A stretch of 64,000 nt of DNA, from positions 33,852,001-33,916,000 of the forward strand of contig OZ231126.1 in NCBI GenBank assembly GCA_965153355.1, written 5' to 3'. Position numbers and translations under genes: made by a program. The notes beneath the pieces were generated by a model. The model had not been told where the DNA came from. It saw only the letters and a list, made by a program, of their open reading frames with translations, and did not search any database. The stretch is from Flaccisagitta enflata (lineage: Eukaryota). Below are positions 16,515 through 41,000 of the stretch, piece after piece. The stretch's first letter is position 1, and every line of letters begins with the position of its first letter.

Positions 16515-16796
16515 TATACCGTGAATAAACAGGTCAAGTTTCTTGAGCTCCTTTAGTTTGGTTTAGAAAATATCTTACGTTTTAAAAAGACAAACAAACA
16601 AACAAACCAACAAACCAACAAACGGATGGATTCGTTCAAGTCCTTCTCATAGTCTCACTGATGATCTGAGTGCGGTTGGAGTGTACACTTTTCTCCTTCT
16701 TCTTTTTCATCTCCTTCTTCTCCTCCGCACCCCCCCTTCATCTCCTTTCTCCTTCTTCTCGTTCCTCATCTCCATTCTTTCATAACTTATAACTAA

Positions 16797-17153
16797 CACT
16801 TTTTATTTTTTATAAGAACGTCATGTTTTTGTAGAAGCCTTAGAAGAAATATAGGAATAATACTAATAAAATAACACCACAACACACTCAACTGATTCGC
16901 AGTGAAATCCTGGGCTAATCCATCCTTAAATGGATATCCCTTGATTTAGAGCTTACATATAAGAATTAGCCATAGCGACAAGCGACTTAAAAGTTATAAT
17001 CGATAGATTTCAACTGAAGGATTTTCATCCGAAAGAAATACTACTTCGCGATTTACAATTAAACAAAGTAAGTGTGACAATGTTCTTAATTTTTGAAGCG
17101 ATTTCAAGCCTTGATGTTCTTATAAACTACGTTCTTATAAAAAATAAAAAGTG
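16797..17153. mobile_element. MITE with 25-bp perfect TIRs
   Basis: CACTTTTTATTTTTTATAAGAACGT ... ACGTTCTTATAAAAAATAAAAAGTG|TA. Confidence 0.85.
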
Positions 17154-17894
17154 TATATAAATCATGGAGACAGCAGCGCCGGTCTCAAAGAAATGAGGAA
17201 CAATGTCTTTTGTTTTCACTCAAAAGATAACAACGTAAACATTCGCCTGAATCGTCTCCTTAAGTCAAATGCGCTTTTATCATCTTTAGTTACATTCACA
17301 AGACTCTGATTGGCTGACAGTCGATAATGATGTCAGGAACACAGTGGGCTTTTTTAGGCGAACCTTTCTCAAAACCTCTGGTAGCTTCTAACCTAATTTT
17401 TCTTGCACATTACAATCTTATCACCCATATCACCTGGCAATTATTATTACAACATTATCACAGTAATGTCAGCATGGAAATGGCGATATATCAGCAAAAA
17501 CAAACCGCAACAATAATTATGCGAGATTTAACATTAGGCTGCTGTTTCATCGTTTCGCGATTCTATTCTTAATGCTATTCTAAAGAATGACGATCTAGCA
17601 AAAAATATATTAACAACGACTGTTAATTATCAAAAATAATTGTTGGACGAAGGTTCACATTGCAACGAAAACAAAATAAAATATAGCACGGCTGGAACGG
17701 TGACATCTAGGCTACTGTTAACGGTAATTCAAAACGCAATATAACTCTTTTATTGCTGCAACTACACTTTCTAGAAAATAAATGCTACGTGAAGGTGAAC
17801 ATGGCGGTCATGGCGCTGATGGAGATGATGGCGGTGAGCGGGGTTGATGGCGCTTATGGCGTTGTCGGCCAAGGAGCTGTCTCTTCCACTTCCT

Positions 17895-18608
17895 CTAGTG
17901 GACCCACGTTGGCGGCCAAGGATCTGTCTCTTCCACTTCTTCGAGCGGAACCACTTTGTGTCCAGAATGATCATACCTGTAGACACGATGAGAGGAAATA
18001 TTTTTTCAGAAAACGATGTAATAAATCAAGTTAAATTAACTCAAATCAATCATATCAGGAAACGAAAAACATCTAAAAGGTGGATTCCCTCGCAAAGGAA
18101 GGAGAAAGTACTTACATCCAGCACCAGTTGCAACCTTCTTTGTTACAGTCCTCGCAATAGATTGAGAGCTCCCTCTGCGGATGGACAGCGCACGCTGGTA
18201 TCACGCTTTCGTATAAACCAATGAGGACGTTGAGAAATGCAGCGCGAACGTAACTGTCGAGAGACACCTCCCTCCTGGGTAGGATAATTTAAGTAGTGAA
18301 CACTCAAGCGGGTATGTGAGGATTAAAACAAGATAATCATAAAGTCCCAATAGATTTATGCAGTTACAAAACAGAAACAGTACCTTACGACTTCATTGCA
18401 AAACAATAGCGAATACTAAAGAATAATACCTGCAATGTGGACAGGAATCCAGGTCGTACATCATGTACGCGTCGGATATGCATTCGTAACAATAATGAGT
18501 GATGCATGCGAAGCAGATGTAAGGGTTGGTCGGCATCGCCCAGCATATTAGACATTTGAAGTCGTGATAGAAATTGTTAATCTCTTCCCGGGTCCATAAC
18601 ACCGGCAT
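17895..18608 (-). CDS. TRIM37-like RING(C4C4)+B-box mini-protein, paralog A (exons 18608-18430, 18274-18116, 17976-17895; 139 aa)
   Basis: FKCLICWAMPTNPYICFACITHYCYECISDAYMMYDLDSCPHCR | ...CAVHPQRELSIYCEDCNKEGCNWCW | YDHSGHKVVPLEEV. GT-AG phase-2 introns give an intact frame. Minus-strand AATAAA lies near 17750. Confidence 0.85.
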
Positions 18609-18916
18609 GGTGTCCTTAGTGTAACTTGCACGATGACCGCCACTTTCAACGAAAAGACAAGTGTTTCAGTAACACTGCTAAAAATAAGAAACAAATAAAA
18701 CTGGTCGCAGATATACTACAACTGTGGCAATATATACTATGGCGCGATAGTTGTTAACACTGCAACTATCAGTAACAATAACGGCCCAATGTCATACTCA
18801 AAATTTTAACGGGGCTATACTTTCGGTATCCCGTTAATGTTAGAAAATGTTTTTTCCAATTCATCCGTTCCGTAGCCCGTGACCGGCGATGATGGCGAGG
18901 CTGGCGGCGTCGACAC

Positions 18917-19628
18917 TTAAGGCGGCTGAACGGGTGCATGTGGAACAATGTGATGTCCAACATGACGCTCCCTGTAAAGCCGATGAGAGGAAACATCAAT
19001 TACCAAACCATGTCAACTGAAAATAGCACAAATTAGACTGACAAGGCAACAGAAACATATGTTAAACTCGGAATGTATTCATACCTATCCCGTACAACAA
19101 AAACAAACAGGACTTACTGCCAGCAAGCGTTGCAACCCTCCAGCTCGCAGATTGTGCAATACATCGACAGCGGTTTGACGTTATGGATCGCGCAGGCGGG
19201 CTTCACTGTCTTGAAAACCTCAATGAGGGTGGTCATGAATGGAGCGAGTATAAACGATTCCATGGTAACCTCCGACCTGCGCATGATAATGCCATATGTA
19301 AAAAGTATTGCGGCAATCTGCTAGTTTCACCTAGGGGCGTAAAATATCATCAAAGTATTGCAAACGATTCAGCAATATCTTCTTACTAATTCATTTCCTA
19401 TAACAACAATCATACCTATAACATATAATACCTGCAATATGGACAGCGCTTGTGCTCGTACATGACCATCAACGTCGTGACACAGTCGTAGCAATAAATT
19501 TGGACGCATACCTCGCATAAGTGCGGGTCTGTTGGCAGCAAGAAGCAGATGCCGCATCGAAACTCCTTTTCCGCCTCTTCCATGCGCTTTTTAGTCATCA
19601 ACAATGGCATGTCTGTTTTGATATTCAT
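18917..19628 (-). CDS. TRIM37-like RING(C4C4)+B-box mini-protein, paralog B (exons 19628-19432, 19276-19118, 18971-18917; 136 aa)
   Basis: FRCGICFLLPTDPHLCEVCVQIYCYDCVTTLMVMYEHKRCPYCR | ...CAIHNVKPLSMYCTICELEGCNACW | ERHVGHHIVP. Intron positions and phases match paralog A, and exon 2 is also 159 bp. Confidence 0.85.
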
Positions 19629-20121
19629 TTACGTTATCGTGCCTGCGAAACACAAACCATGTTACAGTGAAAATGAATTGGCGCTGGCGCTGGTTGTCAT
19701 TACATTTCTCACAATACAGCACAAGGGTCCGCTTAGTAATTTATTCATTAATAACTAAACTGCTCATTATAAAAAACGAAAAGACCCAAAAACGGAAACG
19801 AAAGACGAAAAACGGAACGGAAACGAAAACTGGAAGGGGCCAAAACCAAATTTGGATGAGAACATGAAATGGTTGCTCAACACCATGGACACAAATATAA
19901 TATTTATCTTAGGCCAGGCCTTTGACTTTTTAAAAAGGCGGCAAACAAGCCGGTCGAGGCAAATATAATTGTTATCTACTAACTAGGAAAAAAATATTAT
20001 CACAGGATACTAACTGTTAGCATTGCACAAAAGGCTTTCACTAATGTCGAAAATATCGCAACACAATCAATTCAGTCCATGGGTTCCCCACAGCATTGGC
20101 TTGCGAAGCAAAACGCCGACG

Positions 20122-20553
20122 TTAACGTCCACTGTTGCTAGAAGCCCCGATGGACAAAAGGCGCATGGAATCCAAATTGTCAAACTTCTCTATGATGAGC
20201 TGCGCGACGCAGTCTCCCTGACAGAGCGTGAAGGCTTTGTCGCTGCTGTTGGCAATGATGATTTTGATCTCGCCACGATAGTCGGAAGTGATTAGGCCCC
20301 CCAGAACGTCGACGCCAAAGTCAAGTGGGAAACCGGATCTCGGCGCCACGCGGCCATACGTTCCACTCAGCAACATGACCACGACGCCCGTACCGATAAA
20401 CGCTTTTTCGCCAGGTGGGATAACGACTTCTTGTCCGGATGCAGACCACAAAACGGCGTGCAGGTCAAACCCCGCGCCGCCTTCGGACTTGTTGTCCGGC
20501 GCCACGGACGCTGGGTGCAGTAGCAAGTAACGAAAAAAGTCATTGGCAGCCAT
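20122..20553 (-). pseudogene. dut: Intronless trimeric dUTPase homolog, degenerate (pseudogene or pseudoenzyme)
   Basis: Motifs AGFDL, GRVAPRSG, GGLITSDYRGEI and GDCVAQLI are present. The motif III Asp is replaced by Thr. Motif V is broken by TAA (R*RRRFAS). Confidence 0.85.
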
Positions 20554-20806
20554 GATTTCAGTGGAGTCCACAAAGCGGAATGAGACAACTGGCGGGAAAC
20601 TAAGATATCGTTGAAGCATCATGCAGCAAATGAATTGTGACAGCAATGGAGCACGCAACACAATAATGACGACGGTTAGGGGGGGGGGGGGGCAGAATCC
20701 AACATTTTTTTAAAACAACTGAAACAATAGTCATCACTGGATCGTCTGGCCCGGTCTCGGCATTACGTTTTTTCTGCTAGAGATTTGCTTTTAACCCAAA
20801 TACGTG

Positions 20807-21785
20807 CTATCTATCTGCTTCGGGGTCGTTGTCGTCGTTGTCATCATCCTCCTCGTCCTCATTTTCTGCGCCTTGGTTGGCCATCTCCACGGGAACGATT
20901 AAGTGGCCGCTGTGATCATCACTGTGAAGTAAATGGAACACTAACTGCATTAACAAAATATATAAGGCCGGATACATGGCAATCGCGTAGGGCTGGGCAG
21001 GAGCAGTGTTGCAAATACAGCTCGACATGAAAAAATGTGACGATGGGACGGACAAAACGATCAACATGGGTAGGTATCAAGTCGCGTGGCCGCGACTAAT
21101 TACTGATATTCAGGAAAGTTTTATCTATTGTTGCCCCAAAATGCTAAGTGATTTAGTTTTGACTCACTTTCTGCAAAGCTTGCACAATGGCTTCGAGCAG
21201 ACTTTACAAAACGAGATAATGATGTTCATGATGCTCTGTGGATGGAGTGGGCAGACGGTGACTGCCTTCGATGCCCTTAACTCCTTTACAAATGGGGTGA
21301 CCCAGTCGCATTCATCAAATCTTTCGAGATCAAGGGCCAACCTGCATTACAAAATCTTAACACTTGATTTGGTTCGTCCTACCATCTACTCATGAAATAT
21401 ATTTGTTTTACCCAAAACACAGCACATGAAATATATTGATTGTACTACAAACACTGCACATGAAGTATAATTCTTATAACAAAAACACTCGGTGTCTGGA
21501 GTGAACAACTTTAGAACATTACCTTCAATGCGGGCAACAATTTGCATTTTCCTGGTAAGCTGCTCGAAGACATTGTAGACAGAAGTATTTGTCGCAACCG
21601 GGACAAATGAAAGCGTTGACGGGATCGGATTCGCACAGCGGGCAGCGAAAATGAGAGATGAGACGGTCGCGTTCACCGACCTCAATGATCAACCACTCCG
21701 GGAAAGGCCTGTCCATTGCGTCACAAATGAGCCAGGGATCTTGCGTCTTGTTAACCAGGACTAATCCCTTTTCGTTGAATAACAT
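20807..21785 (-). pseudogene. TRIM37-like RING+B-box paralog C with in-frame TGA at the last RING Cys (exons 21785-21523, 21341-21168, 20921-20807)
   Basis: FRCPLCESDPVNAFICPGCDKYFCLQCLRAAYQENANCCPH*R | LALDLERFDECDWVTPFVKEL...CPLHPQ...FCKVCSKPLCKLCR | DDHSGHLIVPVE plus an acidic tail. Intron positions match A and B. Confidence 0.8.
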
Positions 21786-22430
21786 CTTTTAAATACAAGT
21801 GTCTCATGTATCAATTAAGTTTTGGATTGCAAATGACGGGGATAACTGGAGAAAATAGGAATATTACCAATTCTTGTTCATACATCTGGCTGCTTTTTCA
21901 ATGTTAACGTTTTTTAAGAAACCAAATAATCACAATTGGCGAGGAGGAGATTCGGGAAAAATACTTAACGCTTGTTTTGGGAAGCTAACGTTTGGGGGAA
22001 AAAAAACCACAGCATCTGGCACGCAAATAACGGTAACATATGCGATAACTTCCATGCAAATACACAACGCCGGAATGAAGGGAAACAATGGCGGAAGTAA
22101 CGGCGAAAATGTGATCACGCAACGCGGGCAATACCTAACAATTATATCACAGGCCGCAATATTTCTTTAACTAACACGTTGGTTTAAATTGCACTCTTGC
22201 AATACCAACAAGGAAAACCCAGATATCACAGACGAATAAATACCCGTGAGCCACTATACACTGGAAAAATACTGGACTGCAACAATGATGAGGATAATAC
22301 TGGACTACAAAAGTTAATCAGATTCCACAAACGTCCCTATTTTGGGGGAAGGGGTCGACGATGAACGGTCACCATTGGGGGCTGCTCTGGCGTAATGGAG
22401 CCATGAACGCATCCGTTTGGATTTGATGCT

Positions 22431-22922
22431 TCAGAAACCAGAGCTGCAAGAGTCTGAGGATTCACAGGTGATGTCGTCATCGGCGTCATCCGCGTCGTCG
22501 CCGCTGTCGGCACAAGATGGCGATTCTGTAGACTCGACTTTAATTAATCACAGAAATTACTTTTTTTTTTCCCTCGATATAATTAAGAGAGAATTAGTAA
22601 ATAAGTCAAAGAAATAAAATTATTTTATTTCAGCCTATTTCTCACCTATCAGATCAACTATTTCCTTTAAAGTCTCTTTATCGACCGCCTGTATCTTTGT
22701 GTCGTCAGCATTGGCCAACAGTCTTTTTCTTTTGCGACTCATCTTTCGTAAATGATGGTCGCCAGTCCTTATGCCGGCATGGACTGACGCGGACTCCGAC
22801 GCCGATGACGAGCGAACACCATCGTCAACTAAATACCAGCCTTCCCCTTCGCGCACGATTTGGCATGGTCGGAACGACATGCCTTTTAGGGAAACGAGTT
22901 TTCTACTTTTTCTACGGCCCAT
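22431..22922 (-). CDS. Hypothetical 2-exon protein (~123 aa), basic N-terminus and acidic C-terminus (exons 22922-22646, 22525-22431)
   Basis: MGRRKSRKLVSLKG...RKMSRKRKRLL... followed by a G|GTGAG donor and CTACAG acceptor. The frame continues as ESPSCADSGDDADDADDD...GF*. Confidence 0.5.
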
Positions 22923-23335
22923 ACTAATTCTAAATCTAATGGGGAAAATGTCCTGAAATGGAAATGCAAATGGAAATGAAAAATAGGGGAGGAAAGAATA
23001 ACTAATGTTTAGCAATGGTTTTCCAAATTTTTTTCAAACATTTCCATTTTTGGGATCCCACAAAAAAGGGCTAAGCTATATGGTTTTGGGTCAAATAGGC
23101 TGACCACTTAAATTTTGGGCCTAAAATGATTCTAGCTGAAAAGTAACACGGTGAATTATCACAAAAATGAAAGGCTACAATAAAAAGTGGTAAACTGGAA
23201 TTTGCAAAAACATCAGTTAAACTCATTGATTGAAAAACAGCATTATCATGGGAGCACATATGAGGTTTTTGTTAGATAATAACGGCAATTTTCGACTATT
23301 ATTTACTTGCCATCATTCAGCCGTAATAGCAATTT

Positions 23336-23410
23336 CTGAACGGGCTGAACGGGCTGAACGGGCTGAACAGGCTGAACAGGCTGAACGGGCTGAATCGCAC
23401 CGGCTGAATG
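23336..23410. repeat. 9-bp tandem repeat (GGGCTGAAC)n
   Basis: About 7 copies are visible. The same motif appears twice near 11562-11590. Confidence 0.8.
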
Positions 23411-23846
23411 ACGGCAAGTCAATAATTTTAAAAATTCTCCGTTCATATCTTATAAATGAATAATATGTGCTTCCATGATAATGCTGTTTTCCCATCATTT
23501 TACCTACCATATGTGCCATGACTGTCAACCAACAGAAGTTAAACTCATGAGGTATACAGTTTTGGCCCAAAAAAAGGCCGCATATCTACCTTTGGACCCG
23601 ATATTGTGCAAAAGAAAATCAAACTAAAAGCTGTTTAGCAAAAATCTCGAGCAGAAAAAACGTAATGCCGAGACAGGGCCAGACGATCCAGTGATGACTA
23701 TTGTTTCAGTTGTTTTTAACTATTTTTTTATTCTGCCCCCCCCCCCCTCACCGTCGCAACACAATAATGATGACGGTTGATAAATCGTTACTAAAATATT
23801 TGTTGTCTGCCCCCCCACCTTTTTAAAAGGGAAATGATAAGGCAGT

Positions 23847-26800
23847 TTAGGAATTGGCAGAGAACAGGTCAGCGAGAACGTCTTGCGTGGCGTTTCCACC
23901 GTCACGACCGTCCTGGCCGGCGTCGGCAACGGCGTTGGTGTCGGCAACGTCGCCCTCGGCGGTTTCCTCCACGCCGGCGTTGGCCACGTCATCGTCGACG
24001 ACGTCCTCCCATCGATCGCTCAGTCTTGCTTCCATCTCAAGGCAGCCTTCGACGAAGTCATCGAAGTCAGCGTACGGCATTTGAAGAACCGAGCGAGCTT
24101 CAATGGCCCTGCGGAAGATGCGGCGCCGTCCTTCGACCATGCCTCGTTCGTACTCGGCGATAAACTCTCCAATCAATTTGTCGCCTCTCTTCTGTTTCCC
24201 CAAGGCTTGATGTCTTTGACGTCGCCGAATGTCCATGACCCAGTCGCTCACTCCGAAACCGTAACTGGAGGATAGTGGATGGTTGGTAAAACACACAAGA
24301 CCCTAGCATAAATGATGTGACACAAGAAAATAGTATAAAGGATGCGACCGAAGAAACAAGCATAAACCATGCAACTTACCATTCCAAGAAATCCCAGAAT
24401 GCGTCTAGCTGAGGACTGTAAGCGCACTGGTCCATCCACTCGTGGTCTATTTTAAGGTCTCGAAAAAAGGACATGTAATAGACGTGGAAGAGGGTGCGCA
24501 AGTATCGGTCCCAGCTACCACAATCGTTGCCTTCCGCGCGAGTTAGGAGCCACGTTAGCCCGTATTCGGTGCAGGCTCCGACGTCGAAGTCTCCCGACTC
24601 GTCATGGTGAAGAAAAAACATGGCGCAATGGGGGCCTCTGCTAGCAACCTCCATGATGTCATCGATATCCTGCGGGATGAAGGATGGATGAGAAATTGTA
24701 AATGTGGTTAAAGATCCTAGATCCAAATATAATTGTTACATTAGGCACGCCCTTTCTTTTCATAAACGGTGGGTAACACGACGTTCCAGCCGATTACAAT
24801 TAATAAAATGTGTCACTGTTTTTAGCGCTGTAAGACACCCAATGCAACACAATGTGGTACAATACCGGTATTTTTGGACATCCGAATTCGTTCAAAAGCC
24901 ATTGGATGACGTCGAAGCCAGCTTCGGCCTTGTCCATGACCCCTTTTTGAACGCGGACCTCGTCTCCCTCCTTGGAGATTATCATTGTTGCCAGTGGATG
25001 CAACAGCTGTATGAGGGTGGCCGCGTTTTGGATGCATAACTCGTAGGAGTTCCTCTTGTTCACGCCAGGCTCACGGTCACGAATGTGGTACGCGGTCAGA
25101 ATCTCGTTGGCCAGCAGCGGTTGCAGGTGGCGCAGATAGAGGAAGGGGAAGAGCTGGCGCGGATCCTAATGTATAAAAGACAAGTTGTCAAAAATTATAT
25201 TTTTAGAGGTACTAGAGACAGGATTAAATGGAACCCCCCCCCCCAACACACATTTCCTAACTAAACTTACAATCTTAGGGCTCCGGCTCAAAACCACGAC
25301 GATATGGCCGTATCGGCATAAGAATGCACCCAATTTGGAGTTGAAGAACTTGTCGATGTCTTTTTCTCTTGTCGACACCACCATCACGTTATCGTCGGGG
25401 ACGTGCCTGTTGTAGAGGCTCATGAGCCCTAATCGATCTTGCTCAAACTGAAGATTCCATCGGGCCACTCGTTCGGGAAACGTCGTCTTCAGAGTAGTTT
25501 CAACCAACTAAATGGAAGAATGAAGTCAAACAAGTCAAGTATTAAAAAATATAGGCATGACAAGTGGTGTCTTTATAGAGGCATGTGTGGCAGGCGTGTG
25601 TGCCATTGATGGCACGTGAACGCATGTGTTCCTTTAATGGAGCCATGCCCATGAAGGCATGGCCAGGAAGCCATGTGTGCCATTCATATGAGGCAAGTTA
25701 CATTGTATCTGGTGGCCACTTACATTGTATACGCTGCTGAGCGTTTGCCAGTCGGGGATAGGCTGGACGTAGATCCGTCGGAAAAACTCGTTGATCCCCA
25801 AACTTCGCAGTTCAATGTTGTTGACAATCCTGTCCCAGAATTGTCTGACTTCCGCGGTCTTTACTTTTTTGATCCCGGCCTCTTTGGCGAGTGTCGACAC
25901 CATCGAAAGAAACATGCTGGGGGTGCAAGGCTGCACCGGAGGAGGAGGAGGAGGAGGAGGAGCAGCTCCGAAAGTCGAGATCGCTGGCCTGTTTTGAAAG
26001 TGTATATAAATAAAATTTTAACGAATGTGCTGGGAGGTGGAAATTGAAAAAAAATAAAAACAACCGTTTCCAGCACAAGATAAACAACCATTTACTTACA
26101 ATTTTTTTGGGCAGCGTTGGCCTTTCTTTCTCAACGCACTGTTTTCTGCAACGACACCCCTGTTAATGGTCAAGTTTGGAAATTTGTTATACCACGGGAA
26201 TTTCCAAACTGTCCTCTCCAACCACCTCCTTGTCGCTTAACTCACCCACGAGTGGAATCTTGGCTGAATTCCGGGGGGACGGCGGCATCATCGTCGCTAA
26301 CAGAGATGATTTGGGTCGGCAATTTTTCGACGGTGTCTTCCGCTTCGTAATCGGCATCAACATCCACGCCAGCCAAGTTGGGGATGGAGGGAGTGGTTTC
26401 TACCACCTCCGCTCTTGCGTTCTTGAAACTGTGAACATATATGGATGAAAATCTAACAGTTATATTGGGGGCCAAAGTATAATTATTGTCAATGACACTG
26501 AAAATTGCAATGTTAACGCTTCTCTTTTCGCATTACCTGTTCACAACTGAGCGAGTGATTCTCCGACGCTTGATTTGATATCGGTCCATAACCGCCAATT
26601 GCTCGGGAGTCAATGACTGCTCGTTATGATCCATTGCGTCGCCGAAACTCGTGGCAAATGGACGTTTGGAAAATTGGGGGAGAGACTTCTCACCGCCAAC
26701 GAAATCGGACCGCAATCGTTTTTGCCCAATGTGTCTGCCCGAGGACTTGGAAGACGACGAATTTGCAGCGGACGATTTTGAAGACGACGAATTTGCAGCG

Positions 26801-29800: not shown

Positions 29801-30036
29801 GGCAAGTAATCAGAATCATCCTCTGCCCTTGTTCTTCTGCGTGCGGTTGAACTGGTGACAGCTTTGTTTGCCGCAAGATCCTCTCTCAGCACGTCTCGAG
29901 GCTTCGCCGATGCGCTCTGACTTGTGTCTGGCCGGGATCTCTGCCGGCAAGTTGAATTGGATCCCGCGCCGGACTTCCCCACATCCTTCTTTCCCGACTT
30001 CCGCTGTCTCGGGCTCGTTACATACGCCTTGACCAT
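23847..30036 (-). CDS. Multi-exon EnSpm ORF2 (TnpA-position) accessory gene; exon structure only partly resolved and possibly disrupted
   Basis: A series of GC-richer exons is separated by short AT-rich GT-AG introns. The C-terminal LRTLFHVYYMSFF...YSPQLDAFWDFLEC|YGFGV resembles the LF..Y..F...Y......FL....G motif of animal EnSpm ORF2/SAMD3-like proteins. The N-terminal exons are acidic or Ser-rich. Confidence 0.6.
26745..26850. repeat. 30-bp tandem repeat, about 3.5 copies, inside an ORF2 exon
   Basis: GAAGACGACGAATTTGCAGCGGACGATTT occurs three times. It encodes Ser-rich repeats on the minus strand. Confidence 0.85.
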
Positions 30037-30037
30037 T

Positions 30038-32792
30038 TCACTCTTTCACCATTACGTTTACATTAAAGTCGTGCAAGCTGAGTACTGTGGAGGTGTTTAC
30101 CTGGTATGCATTAACAGGGGACATTTTTTTTCATCAAGAAAGAACTGTTCGATTGAATCATTTATTGTTTGTAAAGCGAACAGACCATGCGTTTCAATTG
30201 GAACAGGACGGAGTGGTTGCGCTAAGACTACAATTTCCGGGTGATGGTGGACAAGGGCTAACACGCGCATAAATTTCCCGTCAGGTGCGCCATTTTCCGC
30301 GAAAGCAATGACATCTTTGATTGTGACTTTCCCTACTGTAGTTGCGACGGATTTTAACCTTGACTGCGGATTATATTGCATATAAAACGTTATCGCTTGT
30401 GGGTGAAGTCCATTTTCGTTTTTCAAGATAGAAACTTTTCTTGTCTCCAATTGCGCTTGACTTCTTGATATTAATTTGGAATCGATGCGTCTCATGATGG
30501 TTTTTAATACATTTATTGTACATCTGCTACTACCGAACGCCCTCTTACACAACTGGTGTGTTTGCTCACAAAGCCCAGAATTCTGTAATGACAAAGGGAC
30601 GGCCCATCTGAGTGCAGCAGGGTAATGTACTAGGTTATGCTCTTTGGATTTGAGTCTGGGATCATATTCTCCAGTTGCTGTCCTTGTGAGATTCATGCGC
30701 GCATTCAATGTGTCTTGGATGTAAGCTTCCAACTGAGTTAGGCTAGCCACGTTGTGGTTTCGGGTTAGTAATAGTCTAGTTAAATGGAGAACTTTCAAAT
30801 AAAATTGCCAAACGGGGTGGACCGGATTTTCCACTTTCGAGTATAGCACAGTGCTAAACATTAATATAAAGATGTCTTGTGTGCGCAACTTTGTTGCAAA
30901 TCTTTATCTCTTTTTTCCATAATCAAATTTGAAGTAGGCTCGATTCCTGCAATCCTCCCTCCTGCAATCCTCCCTACGGAATTTAAAACGTTTCCACCGA
31001 TTTCTCAATGACATTGGCGATATCCATTGCAAGTCAAAGACAATACGGTTTACGATGATTGTCATCCAAGTTACAGTGCAGCCGAGAAAGAAATCATGAT
31101 CCAGATCTAAACAGTAAATGTTTGTGTTTGGGTGGATATATGGAATGTTGTGCAAAACGGGTACACTAGTGAATCCGTGCGGCAAAATATCGTCGTTGGC
31201 TTCGGCACGAATGACCTCCATGTATTCTTGAGGGGTGCGAATAGCGGCTGTTGACAGACTAGCAGCGGTATTTGCAGTAGCTAAATCAGCCATTAAATAA
31301 TGGCAAAAGCGACAACATTTTCCATGTGACCATGACCGCGTTAACCCACAAAGCTGATTCTGGGACAAAGTGTCCCCTATGATATACATGACTCTCACTT
31401 GGAGACGACGGCCCTTCCAAATCATACCATTTAGCACAACCTCTGTAAACTGCTTGTAAATTTCTTCCATTATCCTTTTTAATCCAATTTCTCCTACATC
31501 TTGAGAATAAATGAGTGCCAAAGGAAATACTTGTTCCAGTTTCCGTTGGTTCGTACCTTCCAAAATAATTATTACATAAAAGTTCCAAAGCTTATAATAA
31601 CTATTCTTGGCGTACAATGAGGCCAAAGGTTGAACTTCATCGTAAGCAATAGCAAGAAGTAAAACAGGCTGATCTTCTTGGATACTCAATTCCTGGTATA
31701 ATTGAGAGTTCTTTATAGAATGATGCGTTCCAGCACTTGGCGATTTCAGGTGAAACTGTTGGACTCGCTGCCAATTGTCTTTGGAGCTCAAAAACAATTT
31801 GATCATTTCCTGTACGTCATAGAAGTGAACTTGGATTCTTTTAGGGAGAAATGGGTCATTTCAATGGAAAACTTTTTACAGTTTCTGAATTTCAGAGCTT
31901 TTTGCCTTAAGTTGTTTGCGAGCATAACTGGATTTAAGCTGCCTAACTTTTTTCCTTAGCCGTTCTGTAATGGGGATTTGTAGATGTAACAGTAAGTTCC
32001 ATATAGTTTTCATAACAAAGTTGATTACGATTTCCGTCGCCGCGAACGTATTCTCCAGAGTATCAACTGCTTCCTCAAGTAGCTTTATTATAAAATCCAG
32101 ATTGCCACCAGCACCACCACCACCACCAACACCAACCAACACCACCACCACCACCACCTCCTCCTCCTCCTCCTCCTCCACCACCACCACCACCACCACC
32201 ATCCCCACTGCCATCACCTCCACCATCACCATCACCGCTACCACCGCCGCCACGACCACCATTGCCACTGCTGCCTACACAGAAATGCTCATCAAAAAAA
32301 TGCTCTTCCAGTTCACTGTCATCACCAACATCATCTTCCTCCTCCTCGTCCTCCTCAACCTCATTGTCACTACTTTCAGAGTCGCTGGACAAGGCATCGT
32401 TCTCCATGTCATCATCATTGTGCGGCTGGTCACATTCACAAAGTATATGGCCTATAAGTCTGTGTTTTTCAAAATGTTCAGGTCCGTTATAAACACACCT
32501 TGTTTTGGATATTATCTGGTATGGACATACTTTGGAATGGTCTGGTGCGAGTTCATAATGACTTTGGAGGAAACGAAAGTTGTCAGAGAGTTTTTGGGAG
32601 AAAGGAAGCGTTGTACCACAAACAAGGCACTCCTTTGTCTGTTCGAAGTGCCTGCTAATGTGTCTCCGAGCAGAGGCAGTGTCTGACACCCTTGTATATC
32701 GCTTGCACAAGAGGCATTTTGGCCTTGTGGTTTTCTTAGCGTTTACTTTGTCCAACAGGTCTTGAAACGCAATTTCTTTTAATGATGACATT
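30038..32792 (-). pseudogene. CMC/EnSpm (CACTA-type) DDE transposase, disrupted
   Basis: N-terminal C2H2 fingers (CLLC...H...H). Core motifs are LAIAYDEV, YIIGDTLSQNQLCGLTRSWS...CCRFC, LDLDHDFFLG (DxxH), KEHNLVHYP and LCEQTHQLCK. There is a frameshift in the Gly microsatellite, stops at 31876, 31861 and 30904, and a probable homopolymer frameshift near 30125. Confidence 0.85.
32105..32270. repeat. (CCA)n/(CCT)n trinucleotide tract inside the transposase (poly-Gly)
   Basis: Directly visible. The reading frame shifts within it. Confidence 0.9.
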
Positions 32793-32927
32793 TTAAAACT
32801 GAACAGGGCAAGGGCGCTATGGTGGGCAGATATAATGATTATAATTGCCACGTAGTCGGCAGAGTAATTATATGTCGCTTGTTTACGGCGTTCACTACTG
32901 TCACTACAAGTAATATTCCCAATACAG

Positions 32928-33413
32928 AACTGGAACAAGTATTTCCTTTGTCACTCATTTATTGTCAAGATGTAGGAGAAATAGGATTAAAAAGGATAAC
33001 GGAAGAAATTGACAAGCATTTTTTAGAGATTGTGCTAAATGGTATGATTTGGAAGGGCCGTCGTCTCCAAGTGAGAGTCATGTATATCATGGGGGACAAT
33101 TTGTCCCAGAACCAGGTTTGTGGGTGAACGGGGTCATGGTCACAAGGAAAATGTTGTCGCTATTGCCATTATATAATCGCTGATTTCCCAAGATTACATG
33201 GAGGTCATTTTTGCCGAAAGCAACAACGATATTTTGCCGCACGGCTTTATTACTGTACCCGCAACCGATTCGACATATCCATATATCGAGCGAAAGACAA
33301 ACATTTAGTGTTTAGATTCGAATCATGACAATCATAGTAAACCTATTGTCTCTCAATGGCAATGGATATCGGCAATGTCATTGAAAAGTGTTTAAAAAGT
33401 TTTCAGTTCCGTA
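32928..33413 (+). pseudogene. Inverted partial duplicate of the transposase core (copy of ~30975-31542)
   Basis: It encodes LEQVFPLSLIYCQDVGEIGLKRITEEI...GRRLQVRVMYIMGDNLSQNQVCG*. It is roughly 90% identical by eye over the first ~260 bp, then more degraded with two internal deletions. Confidence 0.92.
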
Positions 33414-34404
33414 ATCAATTAAAAATATTGCAAATTGTTGTCTGCCCTCGAGCCAAATATAATTAGTACATTCAGCTCCAGCCGATTGTACTAAAAAAAA
33501 AAAAGTGGAAGATGCTGACCACCCTGTTGTGCAATTGTAATGAAAAGATGCTCATTTAAGTAGCGTAGGTGAATTTGAAGATTACATAAAAGCCACATGG
33601 AATGCGCGCATCAATCTGACAAGGAGAGCAACTGGAGTCTATGGGTCCAAAAAAAGAATCCCAATTTAATCCAAACAGCGTAACCTTACGCATTACCCAG
33701 AAGCAATCAGATGGGCTTGCCCTTCCTTGTTCAACTCAGCATTGCCCTCTTCTTCCCTCACGGAGAAAATCCCTCAGTTATGTAAATCAGCGATTGGAAG
33801 TAGCCCATGTACTAAGGATATGAAAAAACTATCCTAGACACGATCATTTCCAAAGTGATAAGAAAAAGTAAACCGAATAACGGAAATGGATTGCCCTAAA
33901 ACAGTTCTACACAATTTCACCTCATACAACAAATAAAAAAGCTACATTGGTTACTTAACCAACAAGAGACGCAATGAATTGGGAACGGACACGAAAACGT
34001 GAAACAAAATTAATGAAAGAAATGTATGTTAAGAAATAACCAAACTTACATGACGTGTATCCTGTTGGCGACTTTTCTGTGCTTATTCTTATCTTTAGAA
34101 ATAGTTTAAACTTTACTCAGCGACATAAAAGAAATGGTCTTTGAAAGCAAAATTGATTAGTTATGTTCGGAAATTAATTTAGGCGAAATTGAGTGCTGCA
34201 CAACCAATTAGGAAATTGACCAAATGTCTTACCTCTTATTTCCCTTTGGAAAACGAAGCAAAGAACTATCACCAAAACCACGACGAATACTAAATCTACG
34301 TTACTAAGGTGAATGGTAACTGTGCAGCCGGGAAAACTAATTTCTACATCCATCGTTTACAATGGGCACTGTAAAGAAATGAAAATAGGTATTGGGACAT
34401 AAAA

Positions 34405-36870
34405 TCACATTTTCGGTGAGATGGACGACGCAAATTGATTGGAAACGTCCTTGCCCAACGAAGTGGATTTTAACTTTGCAAACACATTGAAAACGTTAGG
34501 TGACTCCGACGATTGGACTTTCAATTGTCCCTGGGAGTTGCGATGGACCTGCTCCCAGAATTTCGCCATGTTGTTGGCTTCCAGTTGTTGTTTACTCAAT
34601 CGTTTTGGAGTATTTTTTCGAGCGGTGTTTCTGCCCTTTGAAGGAGTGTGGTTGGACGAAGTTGCGTCTGCTTCCGTGGAGGTAACCTCACCCGCAGTCT
34701 CCGAAGGTTTGGTGACTTCACTCGCACTGTGAGAACGTTTCGATGGTCGCCCTACCCTCCTTTGTGGGTGCACCACCATCAACGCTGACGGCTGCAGTGC
34801 CGCGCTCCTCCTCGCACCAATACGACTGGAGCGTCGCTGTTCACCCGTCGCGTACACAATGGACTCCGACGATGACGTATCGCCTCCATCCATGTCGGCG
34901 TCATTTGAGATCCGTGAACGCGGTGAACGCGGCGGTGTCGATTCAGCGTCCCCGTCGTCGCCGCGAAAGAGGGAATGTTCGTAGTCGTTGTTCTTCACTG
35001 GGCAAGCACAAAGTAGGGAAGGAAAAGAATAAAACAGCCACACCTACACATTTGCTATCGGGAAGCATGAAACTGGGCGAATGAAATTAAAGTATATGTC
35101 TAAGCGGTAATGTTGATGCATATGACTTAAGAGATGGAAGTGAAAAACCCGGTCAAGACCAGCGTACAAATTTGAAACCTGCTCGCCCTATTCGTCATTT
35201 TGGCAACCAACAAGACTGTCGTGGGGAACATAATAAATATATTTGGCCCCCTTGTATTTCTTAAAACGGCCGCAAATCACACGATCGAGTCAAATATAAT
35301 AATTATATTTAGCCGTCATTAGTTCTTTTTAACCGACGGTAAACAAGACGGTCGAGCCGATTATGATTATTACAATAAGCACAGATTGTATAATTTATTT
35401 TAACACCGTGGAGCCCAATATAACGGTGAATGAATGAATGAATGAATGAATGAATGAATGAACCCATGAAACCTATAGTTACTATTAATTTCACACCTTG
35501 GTCATTTCGACGATGGGTGACGTTCGATGAACCCGTTGGAATCGCATTAGAATTAGTATGGACCAAGTTTAGGAGGGCGGATACACTCTCCTCAGTTGAC
35601 ACATGGCCTCCACTGCGCGTCGTCTGCTGAAGACGATGTTCGTCGGCGCCACCGCCCACCAAATCATCACGACAGACTGGAGCCGTAAACAAAGGAGGAT
35701 GGTTTGGACGGTCAACTGGAAGACCGTGAGGAGCAACATCCGGACCATGTTGCTGAGCGGGTTGCTGATAATGTTGATCAACTTCGGGAGCATGTTGACC
35801 GACTTGCTCGGAATGTGGAGAATCGGTGACGCGATGAAGACCGTCATCTCGAACAGCGGCATGACCGTCAACAGAAGCCTGTTTTTCACGGGCATCTAAA
35901 GGATCGTCAACACCGCCAGCTCGACATTCTTCATGAGGGACCTGTGGAGAAGCGATAGAAGGCGATTTTCCTGAGGAGCCGGGTTGCGAAGATGGGTCTG
36001 GCGCAGGGAAGGAAGAATGCGCCACGGCCTGATTCACCACTCCCACGACCTTGGTTGAAACATCTCCATGCTCGCCAATAACTTGAGGCGATGCTTTGCG
36101 AGAAATTTGTGCCAGATTTGCATCAAACACTCCACGTACATCATCCTCATGGACGGTAGATGAGTCCACCTCGCTCGAAAGTGTAAAGATACTTGTTGTG
36201 GCGGAAGACGTCAGAGTAACTCCCGCTGACAATGAACTCTCGTTGGAGTCTTCCCCTGCAGCGAGGAGGTTGGGCGTTGACGCGCTGAGTTGTGTGCCGG
36301 CCGCAGCGGCAGCGGCGGCGGCGTTGGCGGCGTTGTCGGCGTTGTCGGCGTTTGCGGCGGTGTTTGAGCTGTTTGCCGCCTCGATCTGACGAAGACGTTG
36401 TTGAAAGCGGCCCTTCGTGATAAGGACTTGCTCCTCTGGGAACAAGAAGATATAGACATAAATAAAGTGTGGGGAAATTAATTATCGTTTTCGGCTGTCT
36501 AGCGGATTTTACTAATTAAAAATTTTGCATTTGTAAAAAAATATGGCCATCGTGGAAAAGGCCTGAGATAAAAACAGAAACGTTCTATAAAAAGATTTAA
36601 TTTTAAAACTGTTTAAAGAAATGGGCGTTTGACAAGAGGAAGATGAAAACACAACACATAAATCACATAAGCATTGAAGCGTTGCGGTCCATAGGAGATT
36701 CGGTGGTTATGCGGCCATCATGCCAATGGTATACCGGCGTATTTGGCAGGATATTCAGCAATCGTTGTTTCTTCATGACTGATTGTGGGGTGTCCGACGG
36801 CGAGTTTGAGAAGCCATAGTCGATGGTGTCAGTGATGAGGAACGCGGACAAATGCTCTACCCAAAGTTTC
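34405..36870 (-). CDS. Hypothetical multi-exon low-complexity (Ser/Ala-rich) protein upstream of the transposase; may extend to ~38.4 kb
   Basis: Long GC-rich open frames at 34405-35043, 35309-36445 and 36663-36870 have plausible AG acceptors and GT donors. No domain was recognised. Confidence 0.45.
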
Positions 36871-37914
36871 TGTAGAAGGAGTGAGGTACATATGTTAAAC
36901 ATATTAGCAAGTACTACAAATAATGACAGTAAAACAGAGCGACGGACAGACAGACAGAGAGACAGACGCAGAAGAAGAGAGAAACACAAAAAACAACAAA
37001 ATGAAGCATGACATACAGACGCGTGCACACAACTGGAAATGGTAAAGTGGCCTGTCAAATAAATAACAAGTTAAGCAGAATTGTATCGGCGGTTGTGTTT
37101 AAACCGAAACTCGTTAATCTTTCAAGAGCAATTATCGTAATTAAAATGACATGCCATTATTTTGGATTTAATTTACATGTTGTAAAACGAAAAGCTTTGC
37201 GAGTAAATGTAAAAAAGAATTTGCATATCGCAGTCAACCCAAAAGAACCATTAAAAAAGAATCACCGAAAACACTGTTCTGAAACGGCCATATCCAACAA
37301 TAATGAAAAAAAAAGGGAAAAAAATTGAAAATACGTAAAAGGTCATGGCTACAGCCAAATACCAGGAAGGTTTGGTTGATTGAAATGAAAGCAATGGCTC
37401 GTGAGAACAGTTCTTTAGTGTGGGTGCCAAAAGCAGCAGTGACAAAGTAGCTTGGGGAACATCCCGTTTTTGAGGGTGTGTAACATCTTGTATATGTTTG
37501 TGTGGCTGTTCCTAGCACGATATGTCGTTGGACATAATCTTGCTAGTACTGGAACAGTTGCTGCTAATATTGTGTTACTAAAAACCAGGGGAAAACTTAT
37601 TTGGCCAATTTTTTGCATATCACTACTGCTTAACAGACTCAGACAGGAAGGTAAAAAATTATTGGTAAAATACAATTTACCTTGAAACAGTGTATATACC
37701 GGCCGACGAGGTACTTTGTACGGTGAATGAGCACGTAAAGACGCGGTTAGTAATTAGGACCGACGCCCTCCTCCCAGAAGCATTGGAAGTTGTTGAAGGT
37801 GAATTGTTGGTTAGTTAAGGGGTCGGGAAGGGGAAACGTCGCTAAACCTGTGGAAAGAAAAAAAAATTAGGTAAGTAAAACGAGTTGAACAAGAAAAATT
37901 AATAAGTTTTATGT

Positions 37915-38050
37915 TGGGCACGACCGGCACCGCCAGCGGCCCGGGGACCGCCACCGGCACCGGCACGGGGACCGGCACCGCCACCGGCACGGGGACCGGC
38001 ACGGCCACCGGCACGTGGACCGCCACCGCCACCGGCACGTGAACCGCCAG
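37915..38050. repeat. GC-rich 6/12-bp tandem array (ACCGGC/ACCGCC/ACGGGG)
   Basis: Directly visible. The VPVAVP ORF here is a by-product. Confidence 0.85.
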
Positions 38051-41000
38051 GGGTTTAATCAGTGAAACGGTAACTTAACCCTAAGTAAACGATAAGTTAA
38101 CGATATCTTTCCCGATACATATAATGATTTTAACGATAAGTACAATGATAACCTAATTTTAACGTTTCATTGTTGTCTTCAGTCTTGATCCATTTTTACC
38201 CTGTCGTACATCTTTTCCATTTCCTACTTGTAATGTTGTTTTATCTAATTTGTATTTAAGACACAAACTATTACCCACGTCATTTTATGATAAGGTGTAA
38301 TGACACTTCAACATATTTCCTTATCCACTTACTGAACGGCTCGATGATCGGCTCCATTATCGTTCCACCCTCCTTCACGTTTTCGTTGAACGCAACTTGA
38401 GTCGTTTACGTCGATTTCATTTGTTAAGAAACAGTTAATTTTGACGTGGAAGTAAAATCAGTGTTTAAAGTCAATTAAAAACGAAGCCATTCTTTAATCT
38501 GCAAGGAAACGATAGTAATTAGTAAAGTTTTTCTAAAAAGGTAAAGAAATATCGGGTTCATCCTTGGGCTTAACTCCACGTCAGCAATTTTAGCGACAAA
38601 TCATCAAACGAGGCCGAATTATCGCAAAAAGATGAAATATCCGCGGCGTGAGCGAGACGCCGTCGACGAAGACTTTCCGTGGCGCATTTGATGAAGAAGC
38701 GACTGCCGTGTTAAGCATCGAGATAACGCTAATATTAACTATTTTTTACTAAAATTCGATACATAACGCAGATATGAACTATTTTTAACTAAATTTTTTT
38801 TTTTTAAAGTAATTTATTAATAATTATTTTTTAGTAACGTCGTTAATAAATTTGGCAGCATGCCGGCCACACCCGCGTAGAATATTTTTTTCATTTTTTA
38901 AATTCGCAAAAGTAGATATTTTATTTCCGACGCAGCGGTACGCTGAGCCGTGCTGCGCTGCTTCCCTGTGCTGCTGGTTGGGGCGAGCGGTTTCCGTCTA
39001 TAAACAAAAGAGCAAACTTCTTCCTTCTGCGCTGAAAGAAAATAGCTCGGTAGATGTCTGGTTTGCGTTCCCTTGATTTCGGCCAAACAAAAGAACAATA
39101 GGGCAAGTGAGAAAAATTACAAGTGTTTAGACTGAATAACAGTTATATTCTGAAAAACTTTTACCGACCGGCCTGCCAAAAAAAAAAAATTAAAGTTTCT
39201 TCAATAAAACTGTTATACATGAGGAAACTTTAACTTAAGAAAAATTAACCTTTTTTTTTTAGTCTTTTTCGCCAATATAATAAATATATAATTCAAAAAC
39301 TCTGTTTTTTTTTCGGAAGGTGGTTTTTTTTTATGTTTACCAAATATAATACTTATATTCTGTACATTAAAAAAAAATTTTTTAGCCAGTCTTTTTACTA
39401 TAATTGTTATATATGTGGGCCGAAAATTTTTTTTTAAAAATAGAGATTTTTTGCTCATACACATGCACTGCAAGCCAACCTGAAACTTTCCCAGTGGTAA
39501 AAAAGGCCGCACAACCTTTTAAGAGAAAAGTAGTGGTCGTGCTGTTTGTGTAATAGTTATATTTTTTTAATAGGCTTTTATTATTCGAACACAATTGATT
39601 TTTCGACTCCATTAACCTCCTCTATGTCATTCCCATTGTTGCTGTGATTCTGCGCTTGTTTGTTTTTAGTTGTTTTCGGAAGTACTGGTAAGTTTCAGTT
39701 TCTTTCGATATAATTATGTATAATGTCGGTGAAAATCGCTTTGCGGATGAATATAATAATTATACAAAATCGCAAGTATAATAATTGACCCACTAGATAT
39801 AATTTTCATAATAATTATTAGATTTCGAAAAGTTTTTTATGAGTGATGATTTTGAACTAGTTTTCAGCTTAAAAACAAGATGGTTTTGTAATTTTCTGTT
39901 CGTTTGCGCCATGACTTATCCGCAATGAATTACAAATCAACAAAACTGTAGTCCAGCTAACCCTTCAGGGAAATTATCCAAACTATCTGTCGTAGAAAAG
40001 GCGCAGTAGAATGCAAATACCAGAGACATGGCTTTTTCTTCAACCAATTTTCATGACACCAGTTTCAATCAATGATAACTTCTCTATTGTTTGACCGATA
40101 TAAACCTGCCTGATGGCAATGTCTTCATTTTTTAATATTGTTTTTTAGTTGCGGACACGCAACTCTATAAGAGGCTTTGTCCGTCCGTCCGTCCGTTGGT
40201 CCGTTGGTCCGTTGGTCCGCCGTCGGTCCGTGAACACGGTCGATAAAGTAGAAAACGAGCGTTTTGGAGTCATTCTGTGCATGTGAGTGGAGGACTTGGG
40301 GTGTGGATGGGGCTTTGATGCCCCTGCCCACCCGTCCGCAACAATATTGTGACCCTGCGTCACTTGTTCTTATATTTTGTCTTGATCTTATTCTATAATT
40401 CATTATCAATTACATGAGATCTGAATGAGATCACATCACATCATGAGCAGCACTTTGATACAAATTATCAACATTGAAGCATTTCAAAGAAGAAAATTAA
40501 ACCGAGAAGATGCGTCTAAATTGAATGTCTGGCCCGTCACCAATCATTGTTAACAAAATATAGAAATAAAGAAATGCATGATATCCCATTCATCATGAAA
40601 CAAGCATGAATCAATCGATTGTTCTGACGCTTATCATTGTTGACAAAATAAAGAAATGGAACAACGAATTCTATTTCATCAAGTAGATAAGCATGAATTG
40701 ATAGTTCCATTGTTAATTATTGTTGACATAATACAGAAATAAAACAGTAATTTCCATTTTTTATGATGATTAGCACAAGGGTTGTTCTGTCAATAATTGT
40801 CCTTGACGATAAAATAGAAGCAATGGATTCTTTTTTATTTCATGATTTATTTGGATTTCATCAAAATCAACATCAACTATCGAGCTAAAACCAACAATTT
40901 TAGGACATTCTGGACGTTTTTAGTCGCGTGCACGCGACTCTTCACTTTGCCTTGTCAGTCCGTAGGTCGGTCCAGTCAGCAAATCCGTCCGTCCAAGTGG

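Follow-up and report, generated by a model that had tools for sequence, protein, structure and literature searches.

A predicted CMC-clade transposase among RING-like and dUTPase-like genes in a 23-kb island of the Flaccisagitta enflata genome: a possible low-copy transposon core

Does a block of same-strand genes that surrounds a transposase move as one unit, or does a much smaller transposon merely sit among genes of other origin? This question is raised by a 64,000-nucleotide (nt) window of the Flaccisagitta enflata genome (assembly GCA_965153355.1, contig OZ231126.1; all positions given here are window coordinates), in which a gene for a DDE-type transposase lies next to RING-like and dUTPase-like genes. 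An earlier note on this DNA had read positions 17340-39646 as a single giant EnSpm/CACTA-type transposon, recently inserted and loaded with captured, virus-like cargo. Our analysis leads us to favor, tentatively and with somewhat less than even confidence, a more modest explanation: a low-copy transposon core of the CMC clade, composed of the transposase, probably the adjacent gene that we call ORF-X (for open reading frame), and a decayed second transposase copy, lies within a lineage-specific gene cluster. The features discussed are collected in Table 1.

Table 1. Features of the island and of its left border (window coordinates)
Feature	Position	Strand	Basis and remarks
Island	17155-40141		Free of flank interspersed repeats; self-BLASTN
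Miniature inverted-repeat transposable element (MITE), left bound, outside island	16796-17154		Perfect 26-nt inverted ends at 16796-16821 and 17129-17154
RING1, C4C4 RING-like ORF, ATG at 18608	18393-18665	-	zf-RING_2, E 0.005, below cut-off
~80-nt repeat copy	19901-19984	-	nhmmer E 1.7e-21 (matches by construction); 138 nt downstream of dUTPase-like stop
dUTPase-like gene, 143 amino acids (aa)	20122-20553 (ORF 20122-20709)	-	Motifs I, II and IV kept
3.1-kb segment	20656-23770		117-nt inverted repeats at 20670-20786 and 23642-23756, ~90%
RING2, RING-like ORF	21525-21788	-	Paralog of RING1; Pfam below threshold
Multi-exon gene	23847-26099	-	Candidate GTAAGT..AG introns link its five ORF pieces
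ORF-X	27711-30036	-	ORFs 29407-30045, 28828-29346, 27922-28224; acidic low-complexity N-terminus, then beta-rich part
Transposase	30041-32791	-	C2H2-like zinc finger at the N-terminus; poly-Gly tract; DDE core (C(2)C, H(3)H)
Second transposase copy, truncated, decayed, inverted	32804-33828	+	tblastn; inverted repeats
~80-nt repeat copy	33395-33478	-	nhmmer E 1.3e-14
ORF rich in Ser, Arg and Lys, AT-hook-like GRP motif	34405-35043	-	No family
~80-nt repeat, two adjacent copies	35234-35315, 35324-35376	-	nhmmer E 1.6e-19 and 2.6e-6; 3' end of 390-aa ORF
390-aa low-complexity ORF (Ala, Ser, Pro, Gln)	35309-36481	-	No family

The transposase and its immediate surroundings

The transposase comprises about 900 aa, and its portion 32103-30041 (minus strand) was matched in tblastn searches by six database proteins of 654-908 aa at 55-95% identity (95, 69, 68, 59, 56, and 55%). 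The longest of these homologs, P0002, shares the N-terminal part with the C2H2-like zinc finger with the window ORF 32075-32950. Pfam assigned no family to the three ORF pieces of the window transposase, and none of its transposase models matched the six close homologs, even at E <= 1; this includes Transposase_21 (PF02992) and Plavaka (PF18759), which were unmatched by window pieces and homologs alike. A profile built from the six homologs nevertheless retrieved 2282 relatives at E <= 1e-3, among which the subfamily near the window transposase makes up only two clusters at 50% identity. Residues D383, D472, C492, C495, H564, D565, H712, and H716 were invariant in an alignment of 48 sequences, E736 was present in at least 90% of the rows, and H739 was nearly invariant as well. 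The window ORFs 30904-31860 and 30097-30903 carry the residues corresponding to D, D, and E; the second Asp is closely followed by a C-x2-C, and the Glu is preceded by an H-x3-H. A D..D..C(2)C..H(3-4)H..E signature is given in PMC12730594 for EnSpm, Mirage, Chapaev, Transib, and Plavaka. When the 48 relatives were scanned at E <= 0.01, Transposase_21 was found in eight (best E 2.8e-6), Plavaka in five, and DUF4218 in four of them; the neighbors of the transposase in a language-model comparison agree with an assignment to the CMC clade. Judged by its motifs, the protein is thus a predicted DDE enzyme of the CMC/CMCT clade from a subfamily that is missed by Pfam. With its signature present and its distant relatives matching Transposase_21 and Plavaka, the EnSpm-type label given in the earlier note was right at the level of the clade, and the remark made there that this is not a described family holds for the transposase, which lies outside any described Pfam family.

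The state of the gene was assessed by comparison with P0001 and with public sequencing data. The piece 17340-27339 was found in 20 public runs from 9 studies, mostly labeled as marine metagenome and in part with one coded organism, and at least half of its sampled words were present in eight runs from three studies. We followed the contigs of three DNA runs (X1, X3, and X7, from three studies) over positions 16801-36800 in 30 bins; all 30 bins were covered, and the long contig pieces differed from the window by about 1%. Relative to P0001, the window transposase has an in-frame stop (30904-30906), two pairs of one-base shifts that compensate each other (30868/30910 and 31861/31899), a tandem duplication of 15 nt at 30945, and a difference of 3 nt at 31917; on either side of a (CCA)n tract, the ORFs for the zinc finger and for the core are in different frames. 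Every covering contig of the three DNA runs contained the unbroken form. All seven indel differences of the transposase were fixed in these runs, and P0001 has the same form. The transposase is unbroken in natural populations. Four of the seven single-base differences that were checked (five of them in the transposase) sit in runs of at least five identical bases, so that some of the frame breaks may be errors of the window assembly rather than mutations. As read in the window, the frame is broken, and this copy could therefore be moved only by a transposase provided from elsewhere. Whether or not the block moves as a unit, the locus reveals a subfamily of CMC-clade transposases that is unrecognized by Pfam and intact in natural populations. 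The source of the window was about 1% diverged from every public data set found to carry the block.

The second transposase copy is positioned head to head with the main gene, 13 nt from its start codon, and spans residues ~142-500 of P0001 only. Main and second copy are 72-74% identical in BLASTN comparisons, with one 259-nt stretch at 93%. The missing remainder of this inverted fragment, which would mark a nested insertion, was absent from the window at E <= 5. The junction between the main transposase and the inverted fragment is present in DNA run X1 (piece 32263-33059).

On the other side, ORF-X starts 5 nt past the transposase end; it has only two database relatives (98 and 82% identity) and contains two candidate introns (28286>28174 and 27925>27711). 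The contigs encoding four of the transposase homologs (95, 68, 59, and 55%) are 2429-2510 nt long, a span that matches the window distance from the (CCA)n tract (32105-32261) to the acidic repeat (29616-29679) within ORF-X. This match suggests that ORF-X lies next to the transposase in its diverged relatives as well. An Atlas lead connecting ORF-X to acetoacetate decarboxylase clusters, with a score of 0.90 and 159 features in common, fell within the range expected by chance, and the AlphaFold2 (AF2) model of ORF-X, with a mean predicted local distance difference test (pLDDT) score of 46.6, was too poor to be used.

The core envisaged here would consist of the zinc-finger DDE transposase and probably ORF-X. 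Its N-terminal zinc fingers would bind the ends of the element and its DDE core would cut and rejoin the DNA; together with the decayed inverted copy, it would sit among fast-evolving, lineage-specific genes of the same strand.

Extent of the possibly mobile sequence

Self-BLASTN of the window yielded 40 repeat pairs of at least 80 nt; 37 of them connect flank with flank, three are internal to the island, and none connects the island with a flank. The stretch without interspersed flank repeats thereby measures about 23 kb, limited on the left by the end of a MITE at 17154 and on the right by the first flank repeat at 40142. Its GC content (0.435 across 17155-39646) compares with 0.41 and 0.39 for the flanks, which are rich in microsatellites and short interspersed repeats. 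An island with respect to the flank repeats is therefore real, as had been claimed, but it does possess a repeat structure of its own. Likewise, every homology-supported gene lies on the minus strand, in agreement with the earlier description.

The most far-reaching explanation for this block is that the whole island of about 22-23 kb is one giant CMC-clade transposon with at least eight passenger genes, among which the dUTPase-like and RING-like genes would act on the host. We consider it possible but doubtful. It would account for a same-strand, orphan-rich block without flank repeats, and it should be accompanied by ends that we were unable to find. The proposed left end at 17340 begins with CACAG and the right one at 39646 finishes with CTGTG, five bases that are inverted-complementary, but no target-site duplication is present there (the flanking triplets are GAA vs. 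ATT). A search by k-mers and extension for inverted ends between 15.5-24.5 and 32.5-41.5 kb returned chance-level pairs only, and a search for CAC..GTG ends that required 11 or more matches out of 14 plus a duplication of 2-3 bp produced two hits, both at chance level; short ends cannot be recognized without a second copy. The terminal inverted repeats and the target duplication expected of a giant element were hence found neither at 17340/39646 nor elsewhere. CMC/CMCT transposons (CMC together with Transib, Plavaka, ESTA, and Lanisha) share the DDE core, the C(2)C and H(3)H motifs, and the zinc finger with the window, but they are defined by 5'-CA..TG-3' ends and a target duplication of 2-5 bp, which were not found in it.

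Sequencing depth and codon composition speak against a single unit as well. Over the transposase (30141-32808), the contig depth was 28.6-36.3 in X1, 1192-2302 in X3, and 4.8-14.7 in X7, and thus like that of its neighbors at 21470-30140 (20.7-85.9, 1049-2181, and 4.6-9.5, respectively). Only at 17.5-20.1 kb and 20.8-21.5 kb, not over the transposase, was it raised two- to sixfold (two- to fourfold over 17.5-20.1 kb). The depth therefore does not point to a family of several copies that are alike by 85% or more, a weak hint only because contig depth is not copy number. The GC content of third codon positions (GC3) was 0.41-0.43 in the transposase and 0.46-0.51 in ORF-X, compared with 0.54-0.66 in both RING-like ORFs, in the dUTPase-like gene, and in each of the five pieces of the multi-exon gene (23.8-26.1 kb). 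This difference sets the transposase and ORF-X apart from their neighbors, and the inverted transposase fragment, the separately bounded 3.1-kb segment inside the island, and the locally raised depth point to a composite history of the block. A gene-capturing single unit is not borne out by a locus without detectable ends or duplication, without a second copy visible at 85% likeness or more, and with heterogeneous GC3. Neither is its recent insertion: the sequence from 16.8 to 36.8 kb is present at about 99% identity in three studies, which shows the block to be a common one and not a new, private acquisition, and the window transposase carries frame breaks.

Precedents exist for large or cargo-bearing elements of this kind. 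Enlarged En/Spm families of 16-20 kb with 4-5 ORFs are on record for Chondrus crispus (2013 work cited in PMC6431247). In the account given there, they resemble the window in having a CMC-type transposase and more than the usual one or two ORFs in a block of about 20 kb, but they form families with defined ends and several copies, whereas neither ends nor further copies were seen for the window block. In fungi, some transposons of the EnSpm, Plavaka, and KDZ groups include a gene for a TET/JBP dioxygenase (PMC12730594). As presented in that article, these elements belong to the same broad clade as the window transposase and carry a gene of an enzyme family that is thought to act on host control; however, the passenger resides in complete elements with ends, duplications, and many copies. 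The neighbors in the window are dUTPase-like and RING-like genes instead, and their co-mobility is hypothetical. Both En/Spm elements of large size with additional ORFs and CMC-clade elements that bear an enzyme gene have thus already been published, as far as these two sources report them. Should the ~23-kb block of this cosmopolitan marine plankton organism indeed be one unit, its accessory set would be virus-like and unlike any described transposon cargo, the dUTPase-like and RING-like passengers would evolve along with the transposase, and a dUTPase fold without catalytic motifs would be tied to a transposon, not to a virus; moving as a unit, the block would join the few cut-and-paste elements of eukaryotes that bring along several working genes.

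Several observations weigh against a small core in a gene cluster and lend support to the giant transposon. Mostly orphan genes on one strand extend across about 20 kb, as would be expected if the block were one mobile or virus-like unit. Of the 30 window matches to an AT-rich motif of 15 nt, 25 fall in the island (5.66 expected for the whole window), and the concentration of this motif there, together with that of an ~80-nt repeat described below, is a hint of shared regulation of the block. The identity ladder of the transposase relatives, from 95 to 55%, parallels that of the dUTPase-like relatives (98-88%, then 66-52%), and such parallel ladders would be compatible with a set of related elements in which the two genes occur together. 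The even depth over the block is equally expected from one single-copy 22-kb element. Moreover, a search for the inverted ends of a smaller element at 26.0-34.6 kb also returned chance-level pairs only.

We regard it as unlikely that the transposase is a domesticated, immobile host gene, member of a small family in an ordinary lineage-specific cluster. Its depth, like that of its neighbors, its ~99% identity in three studies, and the searches in which no ends were found would be in keeping with such a gene, and every relative at 55-69% has a long, uninterrupted ORF, the residues for catalysis and zinc binding being invariant. On the other hand, frame breaks as present in the window copy are unexpected of an essential host gene (unless they are assembly errors), the decayed head-to-head second copy points to past insertion activity, and the nearest relatives belong to a very large family that is typical of transposons, as seen from the 2282 profile hits. 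We therefore retain the low-copy core of transposase, probable ORF-X, and decayed second copy as the preferred reading. The RING-like and dUTPase-like genes are, on this evidence, neighbors that belong to small gene families of their own and not demonstrated passengers.

Genes neighboring the proposed core

Among these neighbors, the dUTPase-like gene has the clearest affiliation. Its product matches PF00692 (E 1e-22; 80.7 bits vs. a cut-off of 22) and 54 solved dUTPases at E <= 1e-5. The best of them is 3c3i (E 1.2e-24), which together with 3ca9 and 3c2t forms the three best solved matches; each of these chains is named deoxyuridine triphosphatase, and we take them to be chlorovirus enzymes. 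At motif III, however, the protein has Thr where 3c3i and four outgroup dUTPases have Asp, presumably the catalytic residue (Asp90 of the Escherichia coli enzyme). In addition, the ORF is about 10 residues too short to reach motif V, and no further exon is visible 3' of it. The lack of the motif III Asp and of motif V argues against a working dUTPase of the viral type. Of the dUTPase claimed for the cargo, the PF00692 family ORF remains, but not the complete set of catalytic motifs. The AF2 model of the protein is all-beta, with a mean pLDDT of 62.9; its fold is settled by the sequence match.

The database relatives of this protein fall into a pair of levels at 97-98% and 88% identity, a group at 52-66%, and then generic dUTPases at 47% or less; those at 97-98% probably represent the same locus in other samples. 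Within the 12 rows of the family alignment, eight have Thr at motif III and no motif V. Three rows keep the Asp, two of them with a degenerate motif V and the third with a different tail, and one has Pro at motif III but a canonical motif V. A canonical motif V was found only in P0021 and in the four outgroup rows. A metagenome contig scan with the family recovered 80 loci, all of them generic dUTPases at 47% identity or less and none a family member. By its sequence, the gene belongs to a lineage-specific family whose members range from near-canonical to degenerate. Since the catalytic motifs are lost in a graded manner and the rest of the protein is conserved, this speaks for a non-catalytic protein with a putative, retained non-enzymatic role. 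Herpesviruses provide a parallel in their non-catalytic dUTPase-related proteins, which have lost the catalytic motifs and kept the fold. Whether or not the block is mobile, a family of this kind would offer a clean case for the repurposing of an enzyme fold. Domains of the dUTPase type also occur in retroviruses and long terminal repeat (LTR) retrotransposons (PMC6431247), where the fold is found in a mobile or viral context, as in the window. The window gene differs from these in being a free-standing gene of 143 aa with its own one-lineage family; it is neither part of a polyprotein nor a duplicated, fused fold.

Genes for dUTPases and RING proteins are common in large DNA viruses. It is nevertheless highly improbable that the island is an endogenized large DNA virus, or a fragment of a virus-like entity, that acquired the transposase later: orphan genes on one strand and the three best solved dUTPase matches would suit such an origin, but a Pfam scan of 25 island ORFs (as single exons, so that distant homologs could have escaped it) revealed no capsid, polymerase, packaging, or integrase family, the viral contigs of IMG/VR contained nothing related to the transposase, ORF-X, or the 24.4-kb exon in equally exon-wise searches, the genes possess candidate spliceosomal introns, and the dUTPase-like family is graded from near-canonical to degenerate. 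The transposase profile found no relatives in the JGI metagenome contigs either.

The two RING-like ORFs are recognizable as paralogs by BLASTP (E 2e-9, 32% identity over 50 aa). RING1 carries eight Cys in a RING-compatible arrangement of ligands (C-x2-C-x9-C-x2-C-x4-C-x2-C-x12-C-x2-C), and its best solved match is the RING of RBBP6 (E 5e-4). In RING2, seven ligands are followed by a stop at the position of the expected eighth Cys. Neither ORF reached the Pfam gathering score for RING families (17.5 bits for RING1, against 27.3, and 14.2 for RING2, with cut-offs of 21-27.3 overall). Given these scores and the early stop in RING2, a function as ubiquitin ligases is plausible only; what stands of the RING ligases proposed before is a pair of paralogous, Cys-rich, RING-like ORFs, one of them without its eighth ligand. 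The RING1 exon probably ends at a CAG/GT near 18430, with a candidate acceptor at 18175 (candidate intron of 255 nt). Runs X3 and X7 each have a contig that skips 258 nt (18170-18427), which roughly corresponds to this candidate intron and is not bordered by GT-AG. Contigs of X3 also cover 18381-18400 inside the skipped sequence, and two forms of the RING1 region thus coexist in that run.

The candidate introns of the multi-exon gene are located at 26099>25916, 25723>25507, 25270>25165, and 24379>24264, and no Pfam family was found for it at threshold. The remaining island ORFs likewise have no family. In total, 14 intron candidates of the GT[AG]AG..AG type (70-216 nt, 13 of them distinct) keep the reading frames open. 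The single RNA run (X12) covered 28 of 30 bins at a low and flat level, and its contigs were colinear with the window and unspliced, also where they cross candidate introns (24735-25220). They consequently do not show that the genes are spliced or expressed, and carried-over DNA may be present in the run. The short introns noted earlier therefore persist as 13 distinct, frame-keeping candidates, but the RNA contigs are unspliced throughout.

Repeats within the island and in its flanks

A perfect direct repeat of 14 bp (20656-20669 and 23757-23770) borders the 3.1-kb segment on both sides; RING2 and an ORF at 22635-23033 lie inside. The repeat arm of the segment corresponds to the sequence upstream of the dUTPase-like gene, and the right junction can be folded as a short hairpin. 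A target duplication of 14 bp is made by no superfamily that could be checked. Either the segment was inserted separately, or it arose by fold-back duplication of this upstream sequence of the dUTPase-like gene. One contig of X3 joins the arm at 23734, via 40 other letters, to 17208. Among the joints listed, none connects across the island or across 20670-23756. Several joints that skip 11-15 kb into 32322-32364 have sides of 21-25 nt; as these lie in acidic low-complexity coding sequence or in the MITE end, we read them as repeat artifacts.

The ~80-nt repeat was traced with an nhmmer profile made from three copies. Its four copies occur in the island only, all on the minus strand and just 3' of three ORF ends. 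The fold of its consensus (-0.37 kcal/mol) is negligible in energy and shows no covariation. The repeat may serve as a shared 3' element, or it may be a small mobile sequence. The stretch 18900-19600 differs from the window by about 3% in all runs, compared with about 1% elsewhere, and its depth is two to four times the island baseline; it has no long minus-strand ORF and may be a repeated sequence with copies elsewhere.

Right of the island, a 92-aa ORF with two hydrophobic stretches (41411-41689, minus strand) resembles a membrane-protein exon of a host gene; its Pfam matches are all sub-threshold. A flank repeat with a (GTCC)n-like core is found at 40125-40409, 44542-45126, 10094-10328, and 52968-53083; it has a conserved peptide in one frame and is represented by several copies in both flanks and by none in the island. 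The MITE at the left border is 359 bp long. In the three DNA runs, the bin 16801-17467, in which nearly all of it lies, has about 50-190 times the depth of the island, and many contigs end loosely within or at the MITE (16841, 17080-17102, and 17144-17157). Many shorter MITE variants are also present and were seen as joints that skip 250-303 nt within 16796-17154.

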